DNA of 63,999 nucleotides, filler included, from Dimargaris cristalligena (lineage: Eukaryota), in the NCBI GenBank assembly GCA_003614675.1. It is 9 parts of 9 records of this genome, joined end to end, with 100 filler letters (N's around TTAATTAATTAA, not from the genome) between each part and the next. Parts side by side here need not be neighbours in the genome. Positions count along the whole stretch, not along the records: positions 29,321 to 36,503 come from ML003443.1; 8 more parts are not named here. One strand, written 5' to 3'. Of the stretch, positions 7,248 through 58,997 are shown piece after piece. The notes below the pieces were generated by a model. It was not told the DNA's origin. It saw nothing but the letters and a program-made list of their open reading frames with translations, and ran no database searches. The translations under genes were made by a program, and so were the position numbers. Position 1 is the first letter of the stretch; the number at the start of each line of letters is the position of its first letter.

Positions 7248-7347
7248 NNNNNNNNNNNNNNNNNNNNNNNNNNNNNNNNNNNNNNNNNNNNTTAATTAAT
7301 TAANNNNNNNNNNNNNNNNNNNNNNNNNNNNNNNNNNNNNNNNNNNN
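7248..7347. other. Artificial contig linker; identical linkers at 14593-14692, 21931-22030, 29221-29320, 36504-36603, 43783-43882, 51060-51159 and 58334-58433
   Basis: 44 N + TTAATTAATTAA (stops in all six frames) + 44 N. The segments fall steadily in length: 7247, 7245, 7238, 7190, 7183, 7179, 7177, 7174. Confidence 0.99.
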
Positions 7348-7623: not shown

Positions 7624-10194
7624 TCCAGTTTTGGGATTTTCTAACATTGCCTATTTTATACTTCCCACTCATTATAGGAATTGTCAGGGTCAGCTATTGC
7701 TCATGCATCACTTGAGTGGGGCATTTAGTTTATCAGTTTACGTGAAGGGATTGGTTTGGGGGCATTTGTCTTGGTTCATGGTTATGGTAGTCTATAGGTC
7801 TCACTCTTATATATCCCCTGTTGGCCTATCTCGATTTTCTAGTATATTATATTTTGGCAAAACCATTGGTATTACGTAACTTCAGATTACCAATAAAGTG
7901 GACATTCTGGTAGGAAAAGGTGCTGCCCATATGCCATCCCTTACTCCAAAGGAACCTGGCTGAGCATCATTTTGCCACCTAACCCAGCCAAAGGAGGCAC
8001 TTAAATATATTGAATTATTATGGGAATGGCCTTTAAATGTAGGTATTGTTTTCGTATATATTTTCCAATGATTTTTACCTATTAAAGACACCTCCTATTT
8101 ATCTTAAATACATGCACTACGCTTGTAATACAATTACCTTTCACTACACCAAATATTTACAGTCCCAAAATTTAAACTAACTGAAATACACATATTTTTC
8201 TCCAAATCATTCATATTTAGATTTTCTCAATAGACTGCGTACCAGGCCATATTACGCTGCCAAATGTGTAATGAAGCTACTGAAAGGGCCAGACACAATA
8301 TTGTGGGAGCCCCCAACTCTGCTGAAATCTTAGGTTTATAATAGATGCTCATCTCCAGACAATTTCATAGGGATTATATTAATGGCTCATCGTCCAGTTT
8401 CCAATATACTCAGACGCCTTTAACTTGAACCATTTTTGATTTTCTTCCGATTTACTCTCTCTATTCCTTGCATCACTTAAAAATATATTCTCCCAGGTGT
8501 CCCACTTTAACACAATCTCGTTAGTTTGGCTGAACTGCGGTCTCCAATTAGTTACTAGTGCCCGGTATTATATGACTAGCCGCAGTGTCCATTTGATTAA
8601 CTTCTCACAGATTATGCACCAACTAACTGGAAGGAATCCAGTGGTGCTGGAATCGATTGATAAGCCACATTAAACCGCCATATATTTTCTGGTTTTATAT
8701 CTTGGATACGCTTTGTAAGGTGCACTTGGAAAGTACCCTCATAACACCATGGCAAGCGGTGTTTCTAGTAATATTCGGTCGGCGCCGCCGCCCATAGCGC
8801 CTCTTCCTCCACCAAACTAGCCCGGGAAAATTCTCAGGAACACAAAACCAGCCATCGGGAATAGCTGTGAAACTACTCAGTTTATCGATAGTCTCGGAGA
8901 AGCGATGGGCGGGAACGAAGGCTTAGACCTACTAAGCACCCTCTCCACGAACATTCGAATACATACAATTGACCTTATTTCTATCCTGGACCCTAAAATG
9001 GGAGTAGTGGTTGCGTGTAAATATATAGAATAGTGTGACGAACCCCATATTGGATGGTTGTAGAGCTCACCACTACGTTTCACGAAAAATAACATTTTGT
9101 TGAAGAGCTCATTGTATCATCGAGTTTAGGAGTGTCTTTAGAAAGATGTCTTGACGGCAGCCTGGCTTGACTGGGCTGTGGTGTGATAAAAACCACTAGC
9201 GGTGCATTATCTGCTGATAAAGGATTGGCTTAGGGGATAGCTTCAAGAACCTGGTATTATGTTAATGTGGTAAAAAGTGGCACTGATTAGTGCCCCGTAG
9301 GAGGGCATATGGCCGAAATGGACCGCATGGGTTTAGGCAGCCACGAAGAGATGCTGGGTTAGTTTCTAGAAAGTGGCAAAAACTAGTGACCAACTAATTG
9401 CGGGCGTTGGTATAGCATATCCTAAAATAGTAAATAGGTCCCGTTACCAATTGTCATTTGGGTTTTTGAAAATCAAAGGGTGTATTTCCCGGTTTACTTA
9501 AAAATAAGCAGAGTGCAACGGTTAGTCCGAAATATTGCCGCTACATCCTTAGCGGTGGCATTGGTTGTACCATCCACCGGATCACTGCCACCAAGTGTAT
9601 CCGTCAACGCCTCCTTATCCCCCTAATTACCTAGTCCAATTATTACTGAAATATTTCCCGAAGTATCCCTTTGACTAATCAATTTGACCTGTATTTGTCC
9701 CCGCGAATCGTCATACCTCATCGACTTGGCTTATACAGCCTGGGCAGATACCTATGACATCAGCCCATATTAAACCCGTTTCCCTTGGGCATGAAGTGCT
9801 TCGCCACCAGCCCGGAGTATTCAAAAATGGGCGATTAACATGGGCTGGGTTTGAAGTCCTATGCTCTGTAAAATTTAGAATATGTAGGCCAAAAGGAATC
9901 ACCGCTATCCTCCAAAGTATGTCATGTTATGTATTTCACTTGGGTATAAAAGACACCACTGCGGCCTTCCTCCTATGGGCAAATACCAATACTATCCATT
10001 ATTTAACACGCCCTACTTTAACATATCGATGATCAAGACCCAGCACTTGCGTGAGTATACTTTTATAATTTTGTTTAGGTTATTATTTGGTTGAATTTAA
10101 CCAATCCCGTTTATCCACTATATATTTACCCTATAAATCTCTACTATTCAGTTCCCTTAACTGCACTAGTCAACTTTCTAGTTATCCAACCAGT

Positions 10195-12255
10195 ATGATT
10201 GGCCACCGCCGAATTACCGTTCTGGGTTTGTTGCTGCTCAAACTCAACATCGCCCAGGCCTTTTCCTTTGACGAGGACACGGGCCGCACCATCAGTTTTG
10301 GCCCCGAATTGGGATACCGCCACTACGACACCTCCGTGCAGGAATCCGGCATTTCGACCGATACCAACGATCCGCTCGAGATTGCCCGTGAATTTGTGCT
10401 CAACAAGTTCGGACTCCAATCCGAGGACTATGTGGTGCGTGACGTGTACCAAACTCAGGTTCCCCCAGTGCACCACGTCTACCTGCGCCAACGAATTAGC
10501 GGCCTGGAAGTAGCCAATGCCAACATGAACATTAACATTGATGGGGAAAACCGCATCATCTCATTTGGCTCGTCTTTTATATTCCCTCCCTCCGAGAATG
10601 AAAATGACGAGGAAGACGATGAAAATGACGAGGAAGACGATGAAAATGACGAAGAGCCCTCGGTTCCCCAACCCACCGAAGATGGGAAGGGAGAAGAGAA
10701 GTCCCCGGGCGAGTCCCAGACCCCGCCCACCAAGCGTCGTAACAGCGCCCCTGGTAGTCAAAGACCCCAACTCTACCGTCGTGAACCTGTTCTGGCCCCC
10801 ACGGATGCTGTCGTTCGTTTGGCCCAGTTTATGAGAACCCCGATTCAAAACCCCGACCAGATTGTGGAACTAATGTTCGAAAATCTGGATGGCGAGGGAC
10901 CGGCCATGGTGCTACAGGACGTGGATATATCCACCGACGGAGATGTCCCGGTGGGTATGAGTTTCATTGCTACTGATGGCGGGGAGTTGGTACAGACGTA
11001 CAGTATTGTTTTGCAGACGGACCAGGCTTGGGTCCATGCCTTTGTGGATACCCAGGGTGGTAATGTGGTGGCCCTCAATAGTTGGACCGCCCACGCCCAG
11101 TACCGCGTCTTTCCTCTGGGGGCCAATGACCCAGAGGCTGACCAGCGTCAGTTAGTAGATAGCCAAAGTCTCGCCCCCGGTTTCTCGGCCACCTGGCACA
11201 GCATGGCTAACGGTACCACCTTCACCGACACTCAAGGTAACAACGTCCACGCCCAGGCCGACCCAACCGGCCGTGGAGACTGGTTGAACCTCCCCCGGCC
11301 CCAGGGAAACAAAGACCTCCAGTTCGACTTTCCCTTGGATCTAACGCAGGCCCCCAGTGCTTACAGTGACGCCGCCATCACCAACCTGTTCTACTGGAAC
11401 AATATCATCCACGATATCTTTTATAGCTACGGCTTCAACGAAGTGGCTGGTAACTTTCAGACCAGTAATGGTGACAAGGGCGGTCGGGGCGGTGACGCCG
11501 TGGTCGCCAATGGTCAGAATGGCGCCGGGACCAACAATGCCGACTTTGCCACTCCCCCCGATGGCATCCGCCCCCGTATGCGTATGTACCTCTGGACAGT
11601 AACTAACCCTCAACGCGACGGGGACTTGGAGAGCGATATTATCATCCACGAGTACGGCCACGGTATTTCCAACCGACTTACCGGCGGCCCTGCCAATGCC
11701 AACTGTCTAGGCTGGGGCGAGTCCGGTGGTATGGGGGAAGGCTGGAGCGACTTCTTCTCCGTTGTTTTCCGCATGAAGGCCACCCACACCGCCAGCGATA
11801 ATATGCTCTTGGGCGAGTATGTCATGGCCGGCCGGGGTATTCGCCGCTACCCCTACTCGATCAATCAGGGAACGAATCCATTCAGTTATGCTTCCCTCAA
11901 TAGCATTAGTACTTATGATCCCCACACCATCGGCACCGTATGGGCCTCCATTCTGTACGAACTCTACTGGAATCTCCTGGAAACCCTTCCCTTCCAGCCG
12001 GACTTGTACTCAGCCTCGCCCAATCATGGCAACACCCTGGCCCTCTTGCTTGTGGTGACCGGGCTTAAACTACAGCCCTGTCGACCCACGTTCGTAACGG
12101 CTCGCAATGCCATTGTGCAGGCCGAGGAGCTGCTGACCCATGGTCAGAATAAATGTGCTGTGTGGCGGGCGTTCGCCAAGCGGGGGCTGGGCATTGATGC
12201 AGCTCGTAATGGTTCTCGCTATGTGGATGGCTTTGCCGTTCCTGAAGGCTGTTAG
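10195..12255 (+). CDS. Secreted fungalysin (peptidase M36) with FTP propeptide
   Basis: Hydrophobic N-terminus, FTP motif HHVYLRQRISGLEVAN, YGFNEVAGNFQ, zinc motif HEYGHG, third ligand GMGEGWSD and WRAFAKRGLG. First ATG at 10195; TATAAAA at about 9945. Confidence 0.97.
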   Translation: MIGHRRITVLGLLLLKLNIAQAFSFDEDTGRTISFGPELGYRHYDTSVQESGISTDTNDPLEIAREFVLNKFGLQSEDYVVRDVYQTQVPPVHHVYLRQRISGLEVANANMNINIDGENRIISFGSSFIFPPSENENDEEDDENDEEDDENDEEPSVPQPTEDGKGEEKSPGESQTPPTKRRNSAPGSQRPQLYRREPVLAPTDAVVRLAQFMRTPIQNPDQIVELMFENLDGEGPAMVLQDVDISTDGDVPVGMSFIATDGGELVQTYSIVLQTDQAWVHAFVDTQGGNVVALNSWTAHAQYRVFPLGANDPEADQRQLVDSQSLAPGFSATWHSMANGTTFTDTQGNNVHAQADPTGRGDWLNLPRPQGNKDLQFDFPLDLTQAPSAYSDAAITNLFYWNNIIHDIFYSYGFNEVAGNFQTSNGDKGGRGGDAVVANGQNGAGTNNADFATPPDGIRPRMRMYLWTVTNPQRDGDLESDIIIHEYGHGISNRLTGGPANANCLGWGESGGMGEGWSDFFSVVFRMKATHTASDNMLLGEYVMAGRGIRRYPYSINQGTNPFSYASLNSISTYDPHTIGTVWASILYELYWNLLETLPFQPDLYSASPNHGNTLALLLVVTGLKLQPCRPTFVTARNAIVQAEELLTHGQNKCAVWRAFAKRGLGIDAARNGSRYVDGFAVPEGC
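10600..10652 (+). repeat. 21-bp coding tandem repeat (ENDEEDD x2.5) in the fungalysin propeptide
   Basis: GAAAATGACGAGGAAGACGAT occurs twice plus a partial third copy. Confidence 0.9.
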
Positions 12256-14452: not shown

Positions 14453-15309
14453 GATGATAAGAAGGGAAAGGTGATGATAGACTTACTGTTCCAAGTGGTG
14501 GCAGTAAGGGGGAGGATTTATACTTGAAAGGGGAAGCCTAAATGAAAAGATAGATGAATAATAGAGAAAGGGAGGGAAGATCCCAGAATATTNNNNNNNN
14601 NNNNNNNNNNNNNNNNNNNNNNNNNNNNNNNNNNNNTTAATTAATTAANNNNNNNNNNNNNNNNNNNNNNNNNNNNNNNNNNNNNNNNNNNNTGCTCTTT
14701 CCAACCTATTTACGACCATAGTTTAGCCAGTAGGTCAAGTTTTTTCCCCATTTTTTAGGTTTTTTTTATGACTTACGATTATTACAGTATTACTCTTAGC
14801 TATAGTTATGTAGTTTGGTCATTTTTTCATATATATACCTTAGTAGCATCCCCTCAGTTGAAGGGACAAGTTAGTTTTGAGATAAATGAATAAATATCTG
14901 TTTTAACTTCACCCGACGAAATTGACGATTACCCTTCACGCAGTTTTACTTTGATTATTATTATCACCAGTTCTATTTTACTTTATTAGTTTCATCTATT
15001 CAGTTCGAAGCCTCAGTATTCTCGAGTACGAAATTGATTACACTGTTTGATTATAACATTTTTTTTGATAACGTTTTTTTTATTTTGACTTTAACAACTG
15101 ACAACGCAAGACAACGACATACGATGCAATGGACGACCCAAAACTCAGCGGCGACTTCCCCAAGGCCACCTCGGTCTCGACCCCCCCAAACCCAGCAAAG
15201 CCCAACGTTCCGCACTATATGACGAAATACGGCGAGCCATCTAGCAGAAAGAAACCGGAGGTTCCCCCTCCTGCCAACCCTCCCAAAGGCACGCCAGTGG
15301 AGTCCCTCA

Positions 15310-21930: not shown

Positions 21931-22030
21931 NNNNNNNNNNNNNNNNNNNNNNNNNNNNNNNNNNNNNNNNNNNNTTAATTAATTAANNNNNNNNNNNNNN
22001 NNNNNNNNNNNNNNNNNNNNNNNNNNNNNN

Positions 22031-29220: not shown

Positions 29221-29582
29221 NNNNNNNNNNNNNNNNNNNNNNNNNNNNNNNNNNNNNNNNNNNNTTAATTAATTAANNNNNNNNNNNNNNNNNNNNNNNN
29301 NNNNNNNNNNNNNNNNNNNNCATACTCGTCAGGGGCAGGGGCAGGGGCTCATTCACTCGTCAGGGGCGTACTTCCGATAAGTGCGAAAAATAGATAAAAA
29401 ATAAAAGTAGGTAAAAAATGTAGTAAGTTCACCATACTGGGAATAGGTGCCACCAAAGTTTGTGGTTCTTGGGGAGGCAGCACAACATTATATTATGATG
29501 GGTATTGGATATTATTAAGCTTTAGTGATTTCACCAATAATATACCTCATAACCATTAATCAAATCACCTCCTTTTTACTAT

Positions 29583-30167
29583 TGTCATCCCTCCTAATCT
29601 GACCTAATCCTGACTTAACCATTGTCTGTCCTTATTAGGCCTTATAGCACCATATTAACCCTCCCATAGTTACCCCCAGTACTATGGGATCATCATCTAT
29701 TTTATAACCCTTCTCCTTCTGACCCCCAATGCTTCACACAAAATACTCCACCAGCTGATCCAAATGACTCTTCTGGTTCCCATGAGAGTCTTCCAGATAT
29801 AAAGCTGTCTGGTCAGATTCCTTATCTACCTATACCTTAGTCTTAGTAGCATTTCCCTTGTGACCTCCCTCTAGAGCTGTTCCTGTGTATATATAACTGG
29901 GCCCCACTGGGACTGGTTTAATTCTTTAGCTTATTCATGCCCCCTAGTTTACCCCAATAAACTCTATATATGCTCACTCCCTCACACTAACTAGTAAGTG
30001 TGCCTGCTGCATGTCCCTTGCTTTTACTTGCACTTGTCCTTTATTGGTTAGTACTATGCCCCTATCCTAATACTAGTAGCCTGCTTAGCCAAGCCTAAGC
30101 CCTACCTACCATTAGAAGCCTATCCTTGGGACTCTTGATGGATAAAGAGTGGTTAACCCAGGCAACA
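29583..30167 (+). mobile_element. LTR, family A, abutting a Copia pol remnant
   Basis: TGTCA...GCAACA termini; full-length homology to 16956-17538. Confidence 0.88.
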
Positions 30168-30865
30168 CTACCAACTCTAATTTTGATACAGAGGACATCC
30201 CTTTTGCCAACTTAGTTGGAAGCCTCATGTATCTAGTAAACTCAATAAGGCCTGACATAGCCTACACTGTCAACAGGTTAAGTGCATTCAACTTTGGGCT
30301 AACCCCTGAGTACTGGCAAGCTGTGAAACACATTTTAAGGTACCTAAAAGGAATAAAAAATAGTGGACTTACCTTTAAAACAAGTGACAAACTGTAACTA
30401 GAGGGGGCCACTGATAGTGACTGGGCAAACAGCTCCACTGACAGGAAGTCAATTACTAGGTCTGTTTTTATTTTGGCTGGTTCACTAATTAATTGGACAT
30501 CAAAGAAACAAAAGATCATTGCCATGTCCACTGCTGAAGCCAAGTACATCACCCTATCCAAAGCCATTAAAGAAGCAATCTGGTTAAAGGCATCACTGGA
30601 ATTCCTAGGGGAAACTGCACCTACTGTGACCATTGATTGTGACACCACAGCCAGCATCACTATGGTGACCAATCCAGGAAACCATAGTCAAACTAAACAT
30701 ATAGATATTCATTACCACTTTATTCATGATTATATTGAAAAAGGAGTAGTAAAACTAAACAAGGTAGTAAGTGAAAAACAAAGGGAGGACTTCCTAACTA
30801 AAGCCCTTGGTTTACCAGCCTTTTCTTACTGTTTACAGCTCTTTAGATGGGACAATAATAAATGA
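30168..30865 (+). pseudogene. Ty1/Copia reverse transcriptase C-terminus and RNase H, with one in-frame stop
   Basis: LVGSLMYL...RPDIAYTV, KHILRYLKG, TDSDWA...DRKS, STAEAKY, TKHIDIHYHFI and DFLTK. TAA at 30395-30397. Confidence 0.93.
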
Positions 30866-30963
30866 AAGGGGAATGTTGGAAATTCATTTCCCCCATCCAA
30901 CTGATTCCGTCTCTGTGATTGGCTCGTCCTATACTCAGGACTATATTCTAGCCTTTACTATAT

Positions 30964-31099
30964 GGGTGAAATTCAAACCAGGTGTATAGGGGTTTACATA
31001 ATACATGCATGGGTGAATATATGTAAGAATAGCTTTTAGCCAGTAATATTGGTCTCATCCAATGGATTTTTCGTTATATAGCCTGAATGAACTTCTCTC
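30964..31099 (-). mobile_element. MITE (family C), inserted in the Copia LTR
   Basis: Imperfect terminal inverted repeats, ATAT on both sides, homologous to 33474-33608. Confidence 0.85.
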
Positions 31100-31150
31100 A
31101 TATCCTTCTTTACCCAGGACTTTGTCCTAATCATTATAACTGCTATTATC

Positions 31151-31464
31151 ATTGATAGATGCCATCAACGTTTTGTTATTTATTGGCAATGCTTATTACG
31201 CCAATTGGATAAGTCCACTGTCTGCAATAACCGAAAAGCCGTTGTACACAAGTGTAAAGAATACAGCAGAGACAAATTTTGATAGTAAAAATAGAATAAA
31301 CTAATAGGGTCGGATGGTAGGAAGGAATAGAAGAAGGAGAAAGATAGAGAAACAAATTTTCGCATGGAAATTTTTCCTTTCTACTTCGGGGAAAGTAATA
31401 TTTTTACGGGAAAATTTTTCTTTCCCCTCTATTAACATAATGCGTTTTTTAAAAACAAATTATC
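31151..31464. mobile_element. Unclassified insertion of about 310 bp (family E); partial second copy at 50737-50974
   Basis: Absent from the other LTR copy. ATTATC occurs at both junctions. About 240 bp are shared with 50737-50974. Confidence 0.75.
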
Positions 31465-31762
31465 TAACTCAATAAAACTTACCACGGGAATCTAGCCTTA
31501 CCCCTTGCGGCTCTTTCTCTCTTCTTTAAATCTTTTTAGTTGTATCTGAAGGCACTTGCGTTTACCATCAAATCTATATTTCCAATACCCTATACCTATA
31601 TTCTTCAAAGAGGTTTAAAACTATAAATGCAGGGCACACTGCCTATCTTCAGTTGATCGCAACCCTCACCACAGACCCACTCTCCTATTCCTACATACCT
31701 TTTTCGGTTCTAGTCATTCCCTTTCCGCACCCCCAATTTATCGTAAGCTATATTTGAACACG

Positions 31763-33347
31763 ATGAAACTCGCCTTTACTGTCCACCTGGCTTCCATCTT
31801 TGCGCTAGCTTTCCAGCATGCTGGAGCTATACCTACAGATGGCGGCACCTCCGAACACATGCCTAGCGATAAATTCAACGCGCTTCCTACCGAATTGAAG
31901 AGAATGATAGCTTTATACCTCGACGGGTATGCGCAAATGCAAATGAGCACGGTCAGTAGGGCATGGCGCGAAAATATTCAAGTGACGACTTGCAAAGCTG
32001 TAAGTTAACTTTGGACCCACTATGACACAGTTCCGTCTTTATGTACATGATCAAATAGTCCTAGCATTTACAATCAGGCTTCAGCATTAATGATAAAAAA
32101 TACATTAGACATTGATGATCCGATGTGAGGTAAGGGGTCGTTTCGTCTATGTGTTAAAACTTTAATCGGGGCTTGACATCTAATCTAAGCCGCTTCTTTT
32201 TTACAATATCCATTGCTGTTCCTGATTTATTTTGGGGCATTGATTTATCTATTAACCGTCACCGATATGACAGGCGCCGCTTTTGGCTAGGGGTTTGGTT
32301 CAAAAAATCCAGGAGCCGCCCACTACCGAGGCTCAAACTAGAGGCAATTCTGCAACGGATATCACTAAGGGCCAAAGCATCGCCCACGATGTGATGAATC
32401 TTACCAAGCACGCGACTATAGTGGCCTTTAAAGAGTTCATGCAGTCCAATACCCATTCCATTACTTGGATGAACCGCCACGCCGTATTATCTGCTACCCA
32501 AATTGGCCAAGTTGGGCCCACTCGGATGCTACTGGTTGAGCCACTCACCAAGGATTTATTGCAAGTCAACTTCCCAATATTTACCCTGGCCGAGAATCTC
32601 ACCACCGAGGAATTTACCAAATTCTTGGCGACCTTGTTTGGCTACGAGTACGTGATTGAGGTTGGTAAATCGATTGCAGATCTCTTTCCCGAGCCTTGCC
32701 AACGAGTTGCTCAGAATAATATCGCGGAGGCTTTGCCGTACATGTACCGTATGGTCCTGTCCCATGTAACATGGTACTTGTACACGCATACCAGTTTCGA
32801 TAAAGTACAGAAGTACTTCGAAAGCTCCTTGGCCCCCCGAAATGCCCTACAAGTCAATTCCCAAATGAATTCACGTCCCCTGCAGGCCCGTCTTGGTGCC
32901 ATCCTGGCCGCAAGTAGGTTTGCCGAAGCTCCCCAAGTGGCCACAGTCACCGATAGCAAGACTCAGGCCGTCATCCAAGCTGAGATTGCGTATTTCTGGA
33001 ATCAAGTCAACCGGGAAGAAGAATTTATGGATCCTATGGGGGAGGGCTACCTAGAGTTCGGTGATGTATTCCTGCCATGCTTGCGCCGGTACAACTTAAT
33101 TAGGGCTCACACTTTCTTCAACCAAAATGCCGGAAGCCTAGGTCTGGTTGCTGAAGATCTCCGCAATGAAGATGGTCTCCTGTTATCAGATATTGGGGAC
33201 TTTGAAATGGAGGGACTTTGTCAGGACGTTTTGTTTGACCTTAAGCAATTCAGACTAAATGATACTGAAGGCTTTGGGTTCACGGTTGTCGAACCTCTGC
33301 TCTGGAAGGCCAATGTCATCCAATATACATTTAGTGCCATGGAATGA
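31763..33347 (+). CDS. Putative secreted F-box protein, about 436 aa; exons 31763-31999 and 32274-33347
   Basis: Signal-like MKLAFTVHLASIFALAFQHAGA, then F-box-like FNALPTELKRMIALYLDGYAQMQMSTVSRAWR. Phase-0 GTAAGT...CAG intron. TATAAAT at 31622. Confidence 0.78.
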
Positions 33348-33473
33348 ATCTGGGGGTAGCCTCATTCTGCATTCCCTATTCGGCTGTAAACCTGGGCTAT
33401 GCATCTCTAAAAATACTTTGGAATGGCGCCATGCTTTATTATATATTTATCTTATTTTGTGATAAATATATAT

Positions 33474-33608
33474 GGGAAAGGTTCAACCAGGCTGTATAAC
33501 GATAAATCAGTTGGACGAGGCAAAAACTATTAGTTAATAATGGGTCTCTCATATTTTTCCCATGCGCGTATCATCCAAAACCTTATACAGCTGCACTGAA
33601 TTCCACCC
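33474..33608 (+). mobile_element. MITE (family C)
   Basis: ATAT-GGGAAAGGTTCAACC...GAATTCCACCC-ATAT. Confidence 0.85.
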
Positions 33609-36452
33609 ATATGTATAGAAGAGCAAGTCTCCAGGACTACCGTTGTTAATGTCGAAGACTTGTACTAAATGGGGTACCTTTAATAATATTTATATGGATT
33701 AACTAATCGGACAAATTTTCAGTAGGTTCATGCATTTTTCTAGAATATAAACGATGGAGCCCTGTATACTATATTTAATATGTGTTGTCATATTAACAAA
33801 ATATATAAATGCAATATAGGTACAATTGGCGCTTGGCCTATTACAAAGAAAGGACGTCATTAGAAGGATATACTATGCTACAGCATATCTAATAAACGCT
33901 TATTTACTGACTACGATACCATTATCTTAGAAAATGGCTACCCCAAAAAACATACAAATTACACATACCTACCGTTGGGTTTGTTAAGAATGAGTTTGAG
34001 CGAGTGTAGATGTGTTTAGAAAGGCCAGTTTTATTGTTAGCGGCCCTAGTAGGTATGGATATTAAAGTAGCGAATGTAGATAATGAAGGATATTGTATAG
34101 GAGCAATAATCATCTGAGGACCCGTCTCTGGGATAGCCAACTGTTCCTTTTATACTGGGGTAATTCAAGAACCAGCTAGGCGCATATAGACTTGAACGGT
34201 ACTCACTGGATGGTTCGTATTATCCATGCGGCCTGGATAGGCCCGTCAGTACCCTTGTAGAGTCTCCAAGGTGTACTGGGGATAGAGGTAGAGTGGATAC
34301 CATTAGTGGCCTGGTTGGATGTTTGAATATATATATTGTCTGACTGGTGCTGGGTACCCCCAGTGCTACAGTATTTACAGGTTCACAGAGGCAGTCTTAC
34401 ACGGGTATACTATACCTTCCCTCCCCAAAAAGACTAGGCCAATATCAGCTGAAATAAGGACCTAGCTATGTAACTAAGCTAGTAGCGGCAACTATTATCT
34501 ATTTTACTTGAGAAAAATGCCTTGGAATGCAATACCCGGAAAAAGGGCTATCAGTATTGTCTATTCCTTACTGCCATGCAGAGACTAAATAGCTAGTCGG
34601 CCACTCCCAACCACCCTTTAATAATGGATTTTCGATGTTTGTTGGGCCATTTTAAGGTATCGTTAGTAGTAATAGACCATACCCTCTTCTGTGCGTATAG
34701 TTTGAACTGATATGCCAAGATGCTGCAATGATATCCCACCACCTGGATCAAATAGTGCATAATAAGTCAGAGGTTCCAAAAGGTAGTAGCCAGTCTTAAA
34801 TATACTGCCTTGATTTCGTAGTCACTGTCAACTTGGGGCCATGTTATAGGCTATATAAAGAAGCCCCAAGTAGGGTAGGCAACTCCATTGAATTGCGAGT
34901 AAATTATTTGGCTTGTACCATTGGTAAAGAAATCCATTGAAAACTGACAGAAGGTACATACAATATGGATATCTTCATTGGTAATGAACATACTGAAGTG
35001 CTTCATAGAGCGGTTGCCTCAATAAAAAATCTAATTTTGCACCATTAATTTTTGATTTGGCTATCTTCAAAGTCCCCATTATGGCTCATATTCGTTACTT
35101 GGAGGTAAAGTGTGGAGTAATAGGCTACAATAGATGTTTGTATTGTTGGTTGATACCTCTCCTCCCTGGTGAAGGATGTGCTGCATCATTGGATGCATCC
35201 CATGTCCAATATCTGTTTTTTCCTTCAGTAAGCACTTTGAACAGTAAACACTGTGCAGAGCTCTTCCAGAGTGCAAGTCAATATAAAAATTGAGCAGCAG
35301 CAAATGCAGAACCATAATGCACAGTAGATGCATCATACTAATATATTTTTGAAACAATAGGCATTTCCATTACATTTGTAGACTCAGCTTACTCTCCAGC
35401 ATTACTATCCCCTATTTTCAAATTATAGCTGTATTGTCCAGAGCAGTATAAATACTTCAGAATTGGGCCTTTCATTTACACCCCTTCGTCATACCACCCA
35501 CCTACCTACTTGTGAGTGCTATTTCCCAATCTCTAGCCAGATACAGCCTCTGCCAAATTGTAAGCCCACCAGCCCTTTTGATTTCTCTATCAATTCACAT
35601 ACTCACCAATCCCTTCCCCCTTCCAATAAATCTCAAGTAAGGAATCTAGCACCAATTACCTTACTACACTAACCAAAGTCACATTCCCTCTGACATGACT
35701 GGCACCCTGATACATAGTAACTAAATCTCTTATTCATGTGTAGCATTTTTTTTCAATCAATATACTAATATGTGATGAGAACCATGTTGACTCACATTCC
35801 TAACTACATGAGCTCTACCACTTCTTCTTGTGCTTGTCAAGTTACTTCTGCCAAACCTCTTGCTCCAAAGGTAATTGCATCAACCTTCTTTTAATACTAC
35901 TCATGGCTATATTATTATACCCTACCCATTTGGCTATACATTGGTTATTGCCTATTTTTTTTTAACCCAATATCTCATATAGTTCACTTAAGCTACCAGG
36001 GGCCAGAGCCAACAAATTAAGTGTGGGGTTGCAGTTGCTAATGCTGGCCAGTCAGTGGCCCATAGCCGGGGTAATTTCAATAAAAAACACCACTCCCACA
36101 CTATCAAAAAACCCCAGGCTAATGTGCCAAAGCTGAAGCCAAAGACTAATATCTTGGTTACTGTTATACCTACAGCTAGAGCAGGGACCAGCCCTGGCCA
36201 CTGCAGCAACCCAGCCTCCCTGGATTCCATTGAAATAACTGGGGCTATAACCCCAGAAGTGCCAATGGCAGACTAGAGTGGGTTATATACATACATTAGT
36301 GTTAATAACAATATATATAGTCCCTTACTCAACCTTATCAGAGAATACTAATAGGCCAAATGAAAGTGTGCTAGCTGTACTCATTGATTCCTTGGTTTAT
36401 TAGTTTTTAACTCTTATTCACTAGCCATATACTACATATTGCTTATATATAT

Positions 36453-36503
36453 GGGAGAAGTTCAATCAAGCTATATAACGATTTGGATGAAAGTTCCAAT
36501 TGA
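36453..36503 (+). mobile_element. Family C terminus at the contig end
   Basis: ATAT-GGGAGAAGTTCAATC... The stretch 36449-36503 is the exact reverse complement of 58434-58488. Confidence 0.75.
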
Positions 36504-36603
36504 NNNNNNNNNNNNNNNNNNNNNNNNNNNNNNNNNNNNNNNNNNNNTTAATTAATTAANNNNNNNNNNNNNNNNNNNNNNNNNNNNNNNNNNNNNNNNN
36601 NNN

Positions 36604-43782: not shown

Positions 43783-43882
43783 NNNNNNNNNNNNNNNNNN
43801 NNNNNNNNNNNNNNNNNNNNNNNNNNTTAATTAATTAANNNNNNNNNNNNNNNNNNNNNNNNNNNNNNNNNNNNNNNNNNNN

Positions 43883-45297
43883 TTGTTTGAAATACAAACT
43901 TCACAATTAAAATAATCAGAAAGAGAATTTTGGTCAACATTTATGATGCCATTTTTAGCAGCCTGCTTGAGGGTATCGAAATTAATATGGCCAAGAGAAT
44001 AATGGACCTCCAAAAGGGAAGGAGGTTTAGGAATTTCAATAGCTAAATTTGCCATTGAAGTATGAGGATATTTAACTGAAAAAGGGTATGAAGAGTGTAT
44101 TTTGTTGACTTGGAGAAGGGGAGTATTCCCCTCTTGAATGGTACAATGGCCTTGATGGAAGGTGAATTTAATTCCCCTCTCATCACTGGCTGGTACAGAA
44201 AGTAGATTATAACCCAAAGTGGGGCAGTGGCCCACATTATATAGGGTTAATCAGCGAGTATTATTGGATGGATCTAGGATGTCAAGCTTGACTGTCCCAT
44301 AACCCAAGATTGATAACTCTTTTCCATCTGCCAATATTAATTGGCGAGTTTCTTGTACATAATTATCAAATAAAGTATGATCAGGGCAATAGTGGTAGGA
44401 TGCACCCGAGTCAATAAACCAAGTTGACTTCGGATATTTGCCATCCTTCACTTTGAGTGCATGTTCAGGAATTTTAACTACTAGCTGGGCTTGTTCAGCC
44501 TGGCTTTCCTTTTTCCCTTTATGCAGGGGGTTTCGAAAACATTCATCAGTGGAGTGTCCACTAGTTTTATGAATAGCACAGTATGAGGTATCACCCTCTT
44601 TTTGTGTGTTTTTAACCCCCTTACTCTTACCCTTCTTACCTTTAAACTTGCCCGGGTTAGTTTTTACAGTCATGGCAGACTCGAACATTGTTTTTGGTGT
44701 CGCCTCCCGATTGGCCAGGAATTGTTCTGCCTCGATAAATGATTGAACTACACTGTCGAAAACAAAAGAGTCCAGGTCCCGGGTATGCTATTGGCTGACT
44801 GTCAGGTGGAATCTTTCATCCACTGCCTGTAGGAACAAGAGAGTCAGTCTCTGGTCACCCGTAAGGTCATACTTCTTGAGTTCCGCGTCGAGAGATTGAA
44901 TCTTCATGGCCAGTTGACGGATGGATTGATTCCCCTGATGGATTCGATACAACTCAGAGTATAGAGTTAGGACCTTGGCTGTAGGTGGTTTGGCAAAGCG
45001 ATTCACCATTGTCTTCCAGATTTCCTTGGCCGTTAGTTCGCCATCGAGGGAGTCCACGTACTGGTCATTCATGGATGCACGGAGCACAAATGAAGCCATT
45101 CGATCATCCTTCAGGTACTGCTTGTTTAAGGCTTTCCCTTTAGGGTCGTCAGTGGTGGTTGGTTTGTAACCATCTTCTACAATCTCCCAAAGATCGGATG
45201 ATTGCAGGTATAGGCGCATAGATAGGGCCCAAGCAGTATAGTTATCACTATCAAACTGACGGGGTTGGATGTTAAGTTTAGAAAGTTTAGAACTCAT
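43883..45297 (-). pseudogene. Ty1/Copia gag-protease-preintegrase frame with two in-frame stops, truncated by the contig start
   Basis: NYTAWALSMRLYLQSSDLW gag start, zinc knuckle CAIHKTSGHSTDEC, protease WFIDSGAS, NLLSV, and HYSLGH...CEVC. Stops TAG at 44788-44790 and TGA at 44251-44253 without frameshift. Confidence 0.93.
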
Positions 45298-45477
45298 TGT
45301 AAGAGTAGGTTGTAAGGTAGATTGATACTTGAAAGGGATGGATGTATGAATGGATGGATGGTTAGATAAATGAATTTCAAAATGAAATGTAGATAGATGA
45401 GTATCCAGTATGGTAGATGGATAGTAAATGAATATTGTGATTGAGGTATAAACGATTAGTTTATTTGAAACACACCA

Positions 45478-45489
45478 GGGCTCATAACC
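45478..45489 (-). promoter_or_regulatory. Copia primer-binding site GGTTATGAGCCC
   Basis: Directly 3' of the 5' LTR; resembles the GGTTATGGGCCC internal initiator tRNA-Met PBS of copia-type elements. Confidence 0.8.
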
Positions 45490-45749
45490 TATTGGAAATA
45501 TAAGTTTGATGGTAAATGCAAGTGCCTTCAGATATAACTAAAACAATTCAAAGAAGAGAGAAAGAACCGCAAGGGGCAAAGCTAGATGCCCATGGTTGGT
45601 TTTATTGAATTGGATAATAGCAGTAATAACGATTAGGACGAAGTTCCAGTTATAGGATGATGTAGTAACAGCTATAGTAAAGTCCCAAGTATAGGATGAG
45701 CCAATCACAGAGATGGAATCAGTGGGACGGGGGAAATGAATTTCCAACA
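45490..45749 (-). mobile_element. Copia 5' LTR (family B, 260 bp)
   Basis: TGTTGGAAAT...TTCCAATA on the minus strand, followed by the PBS and gag. Confidence 0.9.
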
Positions 45750-50974: not shown

Positions 50975-52352
50975 TGGTGTTGTGGCCGGGCCTGCTTAAT
51001 CTCTAATAGCATATCCCAGCCAAACTATTTTTAGTTTAGAAAAGATGAAGAACATCACTNNNNNNNNNNNNNNNNNNNNNNNNNNNNNNNNNNNNNNNNN
51101 NNNTTAATTAATTAANNNNNNNNNNNNNNNNNNNNNNNNNNNNNNNNNNNNNNNNNNNNCCCCCCGTTTGGCCCAGATGGATACCATCTCTACTTGTTCG
51201 TTTTCGAGTAAGCACCCATTTTCTTTACTACCCGCATTTGTTTTGGAAGCTATTTTCCCCAAAGAAGCTCCAAATTATCGCTGTCAATGGGAAGTTTGGG
51301 CCTTGTACACTTTAGTATTCCGTTTTATGATAAAAGCAGCACCATCTACTCCTCCAAGGCCCGCCCACGTGCATTGGTGTAAATATTATATTAGTCAATC
51401 ACGTAACTATCGCACTTGAGTCCATTGGATAGGCACCTACTTGATTGGGCGTACCTGTTAACCTAGACTAATTAGCCAGGAGGGAATGTCAATTTATATG
51501 ACCTTGCCTTACTATAAGTTACTAAATAATATGGGTGTGTAAAGAGACTTGCATAAATGCTAGAAATATGGTGTCAGTTCTTAGGGTAATATAAGGACAA
51601 TGTCTACACAGATCTGGGATGTCGAAGTAGACAGTTGCTATAGGAATCAGGTTTCTTAAAGGATAACCATTAGCTACTTGGCAGAATAGATAAGAAATGT
51701 GTTAATTGCGTCCCTCTTAATCGTGGGGAATTGAGGAAGTCACTCCCAGGCAATTCATCGTCTTGGTCTAAGGCCTACTTGGTAAACCTGACATTCTGGC
51801 CTGTTCAGTGCGGTCCCCATATGGGGCAGCCCTACTACTATATCCTATTGTAAAACAAACTTTTGTTACCAACTATAATCCTAACAGTTAAGTATGTTAT
51901 TCATAACTTTCAGTTAACATTTTCAGTACTGAATTACTTGATTTTTGTATTGAGACTCTTCCGCCGTTTTGTAAGATGTAGTGACATTTATCCACTTTCA
52001 TGGTTTTTCGCTTTGCATCCAAAGTTACGCCAATACCATACGATAATTAGTGTATTATACTGCTAGTGACGAATATTTAGAGCCATCCGTATTCTCCTCG
52101 CTCTCCTATTAGCATTTATGCATTTATAATGGTCATTGCTGGATGTAGACATTCGCCCATTTAGCCTTGACAACTACACTCGCACAGTCATGGGGTGAAG
52201 ACAGTGGTAGTATTCAGATAAATGAAAAAGTCCTTCTAGGGCTGATAAGCCAAACGAGTCAGCCAAAAATAGTCTATAGTGGCTTATATTAGACTATCTC
52301 GAACTTCTGGTGATAGGCTAAAAAAATTCAATAGTATCATACTTGACTATAT

Positions 52353-56516: not shown

Positions 56517-58333
56517 ATGGTAAGTGTATCTATCGTCGAGTACCCTGCTTCTGGTGCGTCCTATTGCCTCGAATGCTGGGTACTTATCACTTTAACCACC
56601 GAGAGGTCGAATTGTCTTTCCGTTCACCATCGTCCTGGGGTGCTTGCTGTTTAATGTTTGCCCCTGTCTGGTCTTGAAAACTGGAGCTACCAAACCAACA
56701 TACATAGTAGGACATAGGGCTATCTGATTACTTGGTTCCATTGTTGCTCTTTTCATTCAAGTGACCGCCCAAAGCCACACTATACTCATTTTTCATAGTC
56801 ACCCCTCAGGCTAAGCATATTGAGTAAACAATTAATTCAAAAAACAAACAAATAATAACTAGCATCGTGTCTTTCTAATACCCTCCTATTTGATACCCCC
56901 TGCAACATCCCTACAGACAATGGTTGGCCCTGATTTAAAGACGGAACAAGTACTCTGGACGGAGCCGATACAGCTTCCCTACTCCCTCCAAGAAAATAAC
57001 CCGCTTCTACCAACCGCTAGTCTACCTATGGCTATGGATATCACTGACTCGTGTTCCTTACCTTTAGTTTCCTCCTCCCCGGCCGCGTCTCCAGCACCGA
57101 CCTTAGTCGCGAACCCAGTGGCCACTGTCGTTGATTATGTGTCCCCTACGAAGCCTCCTGAACACACCCCAGCGGCTACCGAAGCTGCCTCGGAGGAAGA
57201 AGAAGAGCTATATGAGGTCGAGAGTATTGTCAACCATCGGAGGGTGCGTGGGACCGTCGAATACCTTATTAAGTGGAAAGGGTACACCGAGGAGTGGAAT
57301 ACCTGGGAGCCTCGCAATAACCTGAACTGCACGGCTTTGGTCCGCCAGTACTATCGGTCCTTGAACAAGGCCTCAGCCCCGGCCAAGCCAACTTTTAAGA
57401 GTACTCTAGATAGGTTTTTGGCAAGCAACCCCACACCTACAACGACATATAGCCCATCGCTTCTAGCCTCAACACCCGTTACTCACCCGGAGCCAGTCCC
57501 GGTCCAACCTTCGGCCCCAACCCCAAAAGCCCAACCACCCGTGGTAGCCGACCCTTCCTGGCTACCTCTTAAACAGGAAATCCCCCAGAACCCCACAGCT
57601 GGGATTAGAAAGACCGCGGCCTCGACCAAGCGGGGCCAGCGCCTCCGTCGGGGGCTTCACTCCGAATCCATCGACGTGGTCCGGATGAAGCCCAACATTA
57701 GGCGGTTCCTGGATGCCGTCTCCCACGCCAAGGGGCCACCCATTTCCGTGGTTAACGAAGTGGACGACGACGGCCCACCACTGACGTTCACCTATATTGA
57801 CAAGTCCATCATCGGACCGACTATTACGCCCCCCGACCCAGGTACGGCCCTGGGATGCCAATGTCCCCATAACTGTGATGGCCTTTCGTCTACCCATGAC
57901 TGCCTGTGCACTTTCCACACGGATAGGCAATGTGCCTATGATTTGAATGGCCGACTCACTCTGGCCCCCGGGTTCCCCATCTACGAATGTAATTCCAAAT
58001 GCCGGTGCGGGCCTCGGTGTCCCAACAGGGTGATTCAAAAGGGGCCCCAAGTCAAGGTGGAAATCTTCAAGACCGTCAATAAAGGCTGGGGCGTACGGGC
58101 CCGCCAGGCCATCCCCAAGGGCACCTTTATCGCGGAATACGTTGGCGAAATCATTAATGCGGCGGAAGCTGATCGCCGGGCAGAGGTGTACGATGGCATC
58201 GGCATTACCTATCTTTTCGACCTGGACCACGAAGTCCCCGCCGAGCAGTCCCCTGAATACACCATTGATGCCTACCATTGCGGTAACTTTTCGCACTTCT
58301 TTAACCATTCGTGCGACCCTAACCTGGCCGTGT
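56517..58333 (+). CDS. clr4: Clr4/SUV39H histone H3K9 methyltransferase (chromodomain, pre-SET, SET), 3' truncated. Probable ATG-only first coding exon 56517-56519, main exon from 56917
   Basis: Chromodomain YEVESIVNHR...YLIKWKGY...NTWEP. Pre-SET cysteine cluster ECNSKCRC...CPNRVIQ. SET motifs KGWGV, YVGEII, YLFDLD and FFNHSCDPN. Confidence 0.95.
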
Positions 58334-58997
58334 NNNNNNNNNNNNNNNNNNNNNNNNNNNNNNNNNNNNNNNNNNNNTTAATTAATTAANNNNNNNNNNN
58401 NNNNNNNNNNNNNNNNNNNNNNNNNNNNNNNNNTCAATTGGAACTTTCATCCAAATCGTTATATAGCTTGATTGAACTTCTCCCATATTGATGGTAACGT
58501 TAACCAGATTCAATGGTATATATCTTAGGCATTTTTATCACGTGACCATTCTTCCCAGCCTTCTGCATCTAAAATAGCCTATTGCGGATGTAGGAGTTGG
58601 TCCAGGTATATTTTATCCAGTGGTAAGTCAGTCGCACAAAATGCCTGCTTGGTTAGGGAAAAAAAATATCGAGAAAATTGGTTGATGAACCAGTAGTAAT
58701 GATTGAAGCTCAGCGTTTGTAAAAAAAAGCCGTTACTTCGGTTATGTTCAACTATTGTACAGGTGGAATTTGTCCAGCTACGTTAGCTTTTCTTTCGAGT
58801 CATTCAGTGGGCCCTTTGCCAGTTATTCGACCGCAACTTTGCTGCCGTTCCTGTTCCTTTAGGAGTATCCTTGTTAACCCATTCTACTCGCCCCCCGTAT
58901 AGCTCACTGGTGGTGTACACGTCCATTCCCGATTTAAGTTACGAGGCCGATCTCCGAACCTAGTTGCCTTTTCCCTTTATTTTACTCATTATTCACC

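Follow-up and report, generated by a model that had tools for sequence, protein, structure and literature searches.

Signal-like start, F-box-like motif and helical C-terminal domain in a protein family of the mycoparasite Dimargaris cristalligena: candidate hijackers of the host SCF ubiquitin ligase

Within the 63,999-base window, the whole stretch of Dimargaris cristalligena DNA that was analysed, positions 31763-33347 of the plus strand hold an intact two-exon gene whose product combines a signal-peptide-like N-terminus, an F-box-like motif and a helical C-terminal domain. An earlier sequence-only reading had described this product as a secreted F-box protein and had proposed that a eukaryotic parasite uses it to turn the SCF (Skp1-Cullin-F-box) ubiquitin ligase of its host against host proteins. 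The lifestyle presumed in that proposal agrees with the literature, D. cristalligena being a haustorial mycoparasite whose host is another fungus; according to an excerpt of PMC9866270, Dimargaritales parasitise Mucoromycota and some Ascomycota by means of an appressorium and of a biotrophic haustorium. The gene and the elements on which the argument turns are the following.

31763..31999, plus strand: exon 1 (P0001), 79 codons
31763..31828, plus strand: signal-peptide-like segment, residues 1-22 (MKLAFTVHLASIFALAFQHAGA), by direct reading
31874..31978, plus strand: F-box-like motif, with the Pfam F-box-like match over residues 38-72 and a core at L41-R69 (LPTELKRMIALYLDGYAQMQMSTVSRAWR)
31952..31957, plus strand: GTCAGT, the alternative donor chosen in public model P0003; it deletes 16 codons (VSRAWRENIQVTTCKA)
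32000..32273, plus strand: intron of 274 nt, phase 0, GTAAGT ... TATTAAC ... ACAG
32274..33347, plus strand: exon 2 (P0002), 357 codons and TGA, a short linker followed by the all-alpha C-terminal domain (C-domain)
33078..33080, plus strand: invariant cysteine C269 of P0002 (residue 348 after splicing), TGC, in 6/6 sequences
33219..33221, plus strand: invariant cysteine C316 of P0002 (residue 395 after splicing), TGT, in 6/6 sequences

Translation starts at ATG 31763, the first in-frame ATG of an open frame extending from 31619 to 32008, and joining position 31999 to 32274 yields a coding sequence (CDS) of 1311 nt and 436 aa without an internal stop. The phase-0 intron of the sequence-only reading is supported both by its sequence elements and by co-linearity with paralogs: TATTAAC lies 18 nt upstream of the ACAG acceptor, stop codons occur in all three frames, and the GC content is 37% vs 49% in the CDS. 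An additional exon at 32078-32129, a "pseudo-exon" with AG as its acceptor and GTAAGG as its donor, was considered and rejected, since the two-exon model already has exact paralog spacing and the insert is unneeded; being 52 nt long, it would also shift the frame.

A different first exon appears in the public annotation of this gene. Exon 2 differs from the D. cristalligena hypothetical protein H4R33_005733 by a single K/N difference (99.7% protein identity), and in that public model (P0003, 420 aa) the intron begins at a weaker donor, 48 nt before position 32000, with the consequence that VSRAWR is lost. Landmark distances within the family distinguish the two models. The 436-aa protein has an L-to-W distance of 27, a W-to-(I/V)Q distance of 23 and an L-to-K(H/Q)(A/E)T distance of 83; the same three values recur in paralog P0007, those of P0006 are 27, 23 and 89, and P0003 has no W and an L-to-K(H/Q)(A/E)T distance of 67. 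Comparison with the paralogs therefore supports the 31999/32274 junction, which fits them better than the public annotation does and without gaps. Counts of the hexamers GTAAGT and GTCAGT in the window are both as expected and hence uninformative. In P0003 the Pfam F-box signal falls to E=0.21 because of the splice choice at 31952, which explains why the public protein, for which no precomputed Pfam domain is given, carries no F-box annotation. On this homology evidence the public annotation, in which the choice of donor conceals the motif, is corrected.

The protein is not a singleton. A HMMER search of 1.84 billion representatives gave seven proteins at E<=0.001, namely the gene itself, one repetitive artefact (P0009) and five real relatives (P0004-P0008) with E=5e-23 to 1.2e-6 and 27-31% identity. 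The three named relatives (H4R33_003615, H4R33_006898 and BJ085DRAFT_33441) all come from D. cristalligena and represent two locus-tag series; among the 1.84 billion representatives no relative from any other fungus was found, and there is no paralog inside the 64-kb stretch. On these comparisons, the protein belongs to what appears to be a small, species-restricted and fast-diverging paralog family of D. cristalligena.

Conservation within this family is unevenly distributed. The order of signal-like segment, F-box-like motif and C-domain is kept in all three N-terminally complete relatives, in which the signal-like segment is followed by L[PS]xEL...(I/V)A...(R/A)xW(R/K); the other two relatives begin at or after the point that matches the start of exon 2, and their first exon may have been missed in annotation. 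Pairwise comparison of the four full-length proteins gives mean identities of 42% in the signal segment, 36.5% in the F-box-like motif, 25% in the C-domain and 18-21% in the linkers, so that the N-terminal module, signal and F-box-like motif together, is by this sequence measure the most constrained part of the family. There are 22 invariant columns among the five diverged relatives. None of these has more or fewer than two cysteines, and both always fall in invariant columns; the 436-aa model has four cysteines and the public model three. The invariant pair fits a disulfide-bonded exported protein, and a functional pair in a cytosolic protein is also possible.

Such constraint bears directly on the least favourable view of the locus, according to which nothing functional is encoded and the F-box likeness arose by chance, in a decaying or mis-modelled open reading frame (ORF) of a repeat region or on a contig of the host fungus. 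The short, repeat-rich 7.2-kb contig is in keeping with such a view, and contamination is conceivable because Dimargaris is grown with its host. Against it stand the intact frame of 436 codons, the 99.7% protein identity of exon 2 to a second assembly, the invariant columns shared by the diverged relatives, and the origin of all named members from D. cristalligena, in two locus-tag series and with none from other fungi in the representatives searched. We consider this view highly improbable.

At the N-terminus, the signal-like start described in the sequence-only reading is upheld by direct reading of residues 1-22, which consist of MK, a 15-residue hydrophobic core (L3-F17) and QHAGA, with I23 following. 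This is the n/h/c organisation of a cleavable signal, with small residues at -3 and -1: as a pattern reading only, A occupies both positions before I23, giving AGA/I as a putative cleavage site, and the similar segments of the paralogs end in AHA/I (P0005), ALG/I (P0006) and AMG/I (P0007). The hydrophobic cores of the full-length members span 13-15 residues and include S, T and H. The segment is the best-conserved part of the family and is thus translated. A methionine, M33 (31859-31861), lies between the signal segment and the motif and has a counterpart in P0005, P0006 and P0007, that is, in all four full-length members.

The F-box consensus reads L-P-x-E-L/I ... I ... L-D ... V-S/C-K/R-x-W-R. 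The claim of a near-consensus F-box soon after the signal holds on direct reading against this consensus: the core L41-R69 begins 18 residues past the putative cleavage site, behind an acidic 18-residue linker, and shows 12 consensus positions at exact spacing (L41, P42, E44, L45, I49, L53, D54, V64, S65, R66, W68 and R69; in motif numbering L1, P2, E4, L5, I9, L13, D14, V24, S25, R26, W28 and R29). The L-to-W distance of 27 is shared by P0006 and P0007 and is 28 in P0005. When Pfam was run on exon 1 alone, three F-box-clan models covered residues 36-72 beyond what chance would give: F-box-like (E=1.3e-4, 22.1 bits vs a cut-off of 24.3), F-box_4 (E=2.2e-4, 21.5 bits vs a cut-off of 32) and F-box (E=1.1e-3, 19.2 bits vs a cut-off of 20.5). 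With exon 1 as query, the match ends at profile position 35 of 47. Among the Atlas neighbours of residues 30-79, the ten best with a family all belong to the F-box family or clan, with scores of 0.84-0.89, a result to be taken as a lead only.

The remainder of the protein, a family-specific domain of about 340 aa, is predicted to be all-helical. The sequence-only reading had noted a domain of roughly 350 aa that it could not name, and this description stands: exon 2 encodes 357 aa for which Pfam has no family, six members giving only three single-member matches (E 0.065-0.12), and neither leucine-rich repeats (LRRs) nor ankyrin repeats have a Pfam match at E<=10 in any of the six. A profile of the C-domain has 0 matches among PDB sequences, and an Atlas look-up of the domain returned no consistent family. 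AlphaFold modelling of exon 2 with a six-row alignment (predicted local distance difference test, pLDDT, 71.3; predicted template modelling score, pTM, 0.77) gives nearly all helix and a small C-terminal sheet, and a Foldseek search with this model gave 0 matches at E<=0.001, the best being a designed repeat protein at 0.16. The description that best suits the modelled C-domain is that of an alpha-solenoid-like scaffold specific to the family, with a generic likeness to other proteins. Alpha-solenoids are common protein-binding scaffolds; the modelled architecture is compatible with a protein-binding role and is not evidence for one. Near the C-terminus a conserved block, (N/E/D)D.(E/D)GFG(F/I/M).V(V/I) at 33237-33290, lies in the only beta element of the model and may mark a functional site.

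Taken together, these elements can be read as an effector that the mycoparasite exports in order to hijack the host SCF ligase, and this is the leading reading, held tentatively and at less than even confidence. The signal peptide would route the protein into the secretory pathway and away from the parasite's own Skp1, sparing the parasite's own SCF; export at the haustorial interface would be followed by uptake into the host fungus, where the F-box-like helices would bind the Skp1 of the host, a highly conserved protein. With the helical C-domain serving as substrate receptor, host proteins would then be ubiquitinated by the host SCF ligase and degraded, and the divergent paralogs would supply different target specificities. 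Skp1 varies little among fungi, and an F-box of the parasite would thus fit the host's version as it stands. Inferred steps in this scheme are the secretion of the protein, its passage into the host, its binding to Skp1 and the use of the C-domain as substrate receptor.

Three considerations place an exported F-box mimic in front: the motif is statistically F-box-like in this protein and under constraint throughout the family; its hydrophobic N-terminal cores, too short and polar for membrane anchors, are conserved; and an ordinary signal peptide is the usual route by which haustorial parasites send effectors into the host cytoplasm. The location among dispersed repeats, the narrowness of the family, the even number of cysteines, four, in the 436-aa model, the solenoid-like model of the C-domain and the eukaryotic precedent of SSGP-71 were also counted in its favour.

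Several results weigh against this reading. At the level of the motif, the Pfam check on which the F-box assignment was to depend came out divided: matches exist at E=1.3e-4 to 1.1e-3, and none of the models (PF00646, PF12937 and PF15966) reaches its curated gathering score, nor is there any Pfam F-box at E<1 in paralogs P0005, P0006 and P0007. The consensus proline is replaced by S in two of the three complete paralogs. Searching 177,635 PDB sequences at E<=10 with a four-motif N-terminal profile gave two irrelevant matches (E about 2-3) and no F-box chain, and exon 1 alone has 0 matches to PDB sequences at E<=10. AlphaFold places helices at 41-51 and 53-70 of paralog P0007, with pLDDT <50 over residues 1-79, so the model is uninformative about an F-box fold. 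For the signal segment, a hydrophobicity measure does not discriminate, the same value being reached by 25% of 44 ORFs; having failed its own control, this score was rejected as a signal-peptide proxy. N-glycosylation sequons are not conserved in the family, and a start at the M33-type methionine, a post hoc suggestion, could conceivably give a signal-less cytosolic isoform. As for the C-domain, VIA-align reached at best Z 6.7, to helical-repeat proteins, with the C-domain and paralog models, none scoring >=8, and values this low in helical proteins denote a common arrangement only.

Two further searches concern the motif and its partners. A tblastn search of exon 1 against plasmids gave only five irrelevant matches (E 3-5), and a search for Skp1 with the profile PF01466 gave no match in one record and 14 control genomes.

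The shortfall of the motif lends itself to a second account, in which the protein is secreted, the motif does not bind Skp1, and the segment serves instead as a host-entry or sorting module or as a structural cap in a helical protein located outside the cell or at the haustorial interface, its F-box likeness being convergent or vestigial. RxLR and LFLAK motifs of other filamentous parasites occupy a similar position after the signal. This account draws on the missing Pfam F-box in all three paralogs that carry the motif, on the family profile without an F-box match in PDB and on the lost proline, as well as on the conservation of signal segment and cysteine pair; moreover, F-boxes act through Skp1, which is absent from the secretory pathway. 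It has greater difficulty with the copy in the window, where E=1.3e-4 against F-box-like and 12 exactly spaced consensus positions have to be explained, and where multiplying that value by four family members still leaves about 5e-4; the Atlas neighbours with a family, all F-box, point the same way as a lead. This account is possible, if on the doubtful side.

The methionine between the hydrophobic segment and the motif, together with the abundance, lineage specificity and fast evolution of fungal F-box proteins in general, agrees with a third account: an endogenous protein whose F-box serves the SCF of the parasite itself, with the N-terminus acting as a membrane anchor or with translation starting at M33. 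The F-box would then lie on the cytosolic side, and the family would control proteins of the parasite. The details of the N-terminus speak otherwise. Cores of 13-15 residues with S, T and H are short for a membrane helix; with a basic N-terminus and acidic residues after the core, the F-box would, by the positive-inside rule, face the lumen; and the signal segment, most conserved of all (42%), is thus translated. The base at -3 is A for ATG 31763 and C for the M33 codon, and the cysteines are reduced to the invariant pair. An endogenous role of this kind is accordingly judged unlikely.

The effector interpretation of the sequence-only reading, weighed as a whole, is thus partly sustained. The parasitic lifestyle, the existence of a family, its shared architecture and the cysteine pair support it; the sub-threshold F-box, the lack of a PDB F-box match and the low pLDDT of P0007 count on the other side.

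With regard to the genomic surroundings, the window is a composite of nine pieces, each about 7.2 kb long, with spacers between them that stop all frames. The pieces are separate contigs, so gene order across the joints is not biological and only 29321-36503 counts as context for the gene.

29321..36503, no strand: the gene's own contig, 7,183 bp, marked by N runs and spacer sequence
7248-7347, 14593-14692, 21931-22030 and 29221-29320: spacers, N44-TTAATTAATTAA-N44
36504-36603, 43783-43882, 51060-51159 and 58334-58433: spacers, N44-TTAATTAATTAA-N44
29583..31587, no strand: upstream flank with dispersed repeat fragments, 75-88% identity to six other places by blastn
33466..33613, no strand: downstream dispersed repeat, beginning about 120 bp past the stop codon

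Dispersed repeats thus lie close to the gene on either side; together with a further fragment at 36445-36482, they show 75-91% identity and are common to at least seven of the nine contigs. An ORF at 30524-30865, which we take by eye to resemble the tail of a copia-type pol, has no match in Pfam, and no other recognisable gene was found on contig 29321-36503. The last 55 nt of this contig (36449-36503) are the reverse complement of 58434-58488 with 100% identity, which looks like an assembly-graph overlap within a dispersed repeat.

Arguments from neighbourhood, which had involved an M36 protease among others, were dropped because the genes concerned lie on contigs separate from that of the candidate. 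The protease itself is an M36 fungalysin at 10069-12252 on the plus strand, whose start is signal-like (MIGHRRITVLGLLLLKLNIAQA) and which has an FTP propeptide motif; an excerpt of PMC9866270 reports more M36 genes in Dimargaritales. Also on a separate contig is a copia-type retroelement remnant at 44254-45537 on the minus strand, comprising gag (Retrotran_gag_2, DUF4219) and a Pol beta-barrel domain. A Clr4/SUV39-type gene with chromo, Pre-SET and SET domains occupies 56863-58333 on the plus strand and is truncated by the contig end. Further genes elsewhere in the window encode an OCRL-like phosphatase and Nrap. Together with the fungalysin and the SET/chromo methyltransferase they mark the genome as fungal, and none of them is a neighbour of the candidate.

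The effector biology of early-diverging mycoparasites is essentially unknown, and the literature search gave nothing on "secreted F-box" as a phrase and nothing joining Dimargaris with F-box; PMC8146833, in excerpt, remarks that material linking F-box domains to eukaryotic pathogenicity is lacking. If the motif binds Skp1, SCF hijack by F-box mimicry, already documented for bacteria and a gall midge, would also have arisen in a fungus attacking fungi, with a new substrate-receptor fold in a tractable, non-hazardous system. Since the ubiquitin machinery of host and parasite is almost the same, the question of how such a parasite avoids self-intoxication would follow. The wider claim, that F-box mimics are exported through the ordinary secretory pathway with a new helical receptor domain and form the first fungal, and first fungus-against-fungus, SCF-hijacking effector family, is a possibility that we rate as somewhat unlikely.

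Ordinary fungal F-box proteins (PF00646, PF12937) offer the nearest comparison at the level of the motif. They share with the Dimargaris protein an N-terminal motif of about 30-45 aa (consensus LPxEL...I...LD...VSRxWR) and a variable C-terminal domain. Being cytosolic or nuclear, they lack a signal peptide, whereas the Dimargaris protein and all three of its complete relatives have a signal-like start, only a cysteine pair that is invariant, and scores below the cut-offs.

Among proteins of parasites, the SSGP-71 family of the Hessian fly, Mayetiola destructor, is the closest in logic. SSGP-71 proteins carry a signal peptide, and both cases involve a eukaryotic parasite and an expanded, diverging family in which signal, F-box and C-terminal domain follow one another in the same order. 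The C-terminal domain consists of LRRs in SSGP-71 and is an all-alpha domain without an LRR match here; an insect living on plants is set against a fungus living on fungi; and the HMMER search showed no sequence relationship. According to an excerpt of PMC4617103, SSGP-71 proteins combine F-box and LRR and interact with host Skp proteins, whereas in Dimargaris Skp binding is a sequence-based proposal only. The sequence-only reading had cited translocated F-box effectors in bacteria and viruses; that list was incomplete, as SSGP-71 provides a eukaryotic precedent (PMC4617103, in excerpt).

The bacterial systems correspond in the logic proposed, by which host Skp1/SCF is steered to a target chosen by the pathogen. 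Ralstonia RipG/GALA, Agrobacterium VirF and Legionella AnkB and LegU1 place an F-box in the host that recruits host Skp1/SCF, as summarised in the same excerpted source (PMC4617103) and in further literature. These effectors travel by type III or type IV secretion and pair the F-box with LRR or ankyrin domains, in contrast to the eukaryotic signal peptide and sub-threshold F-box of the Dimargaris protein. With neither LRR nor ankyrin repeats and no sequence link, the likeness to SSGP-71, RipG/GALA, VirF and AnkB is one of logic, not of descent, and the Dimargaris family at present constitutes a well-formed candidate for a variant of the known SCF-hijack strategy.

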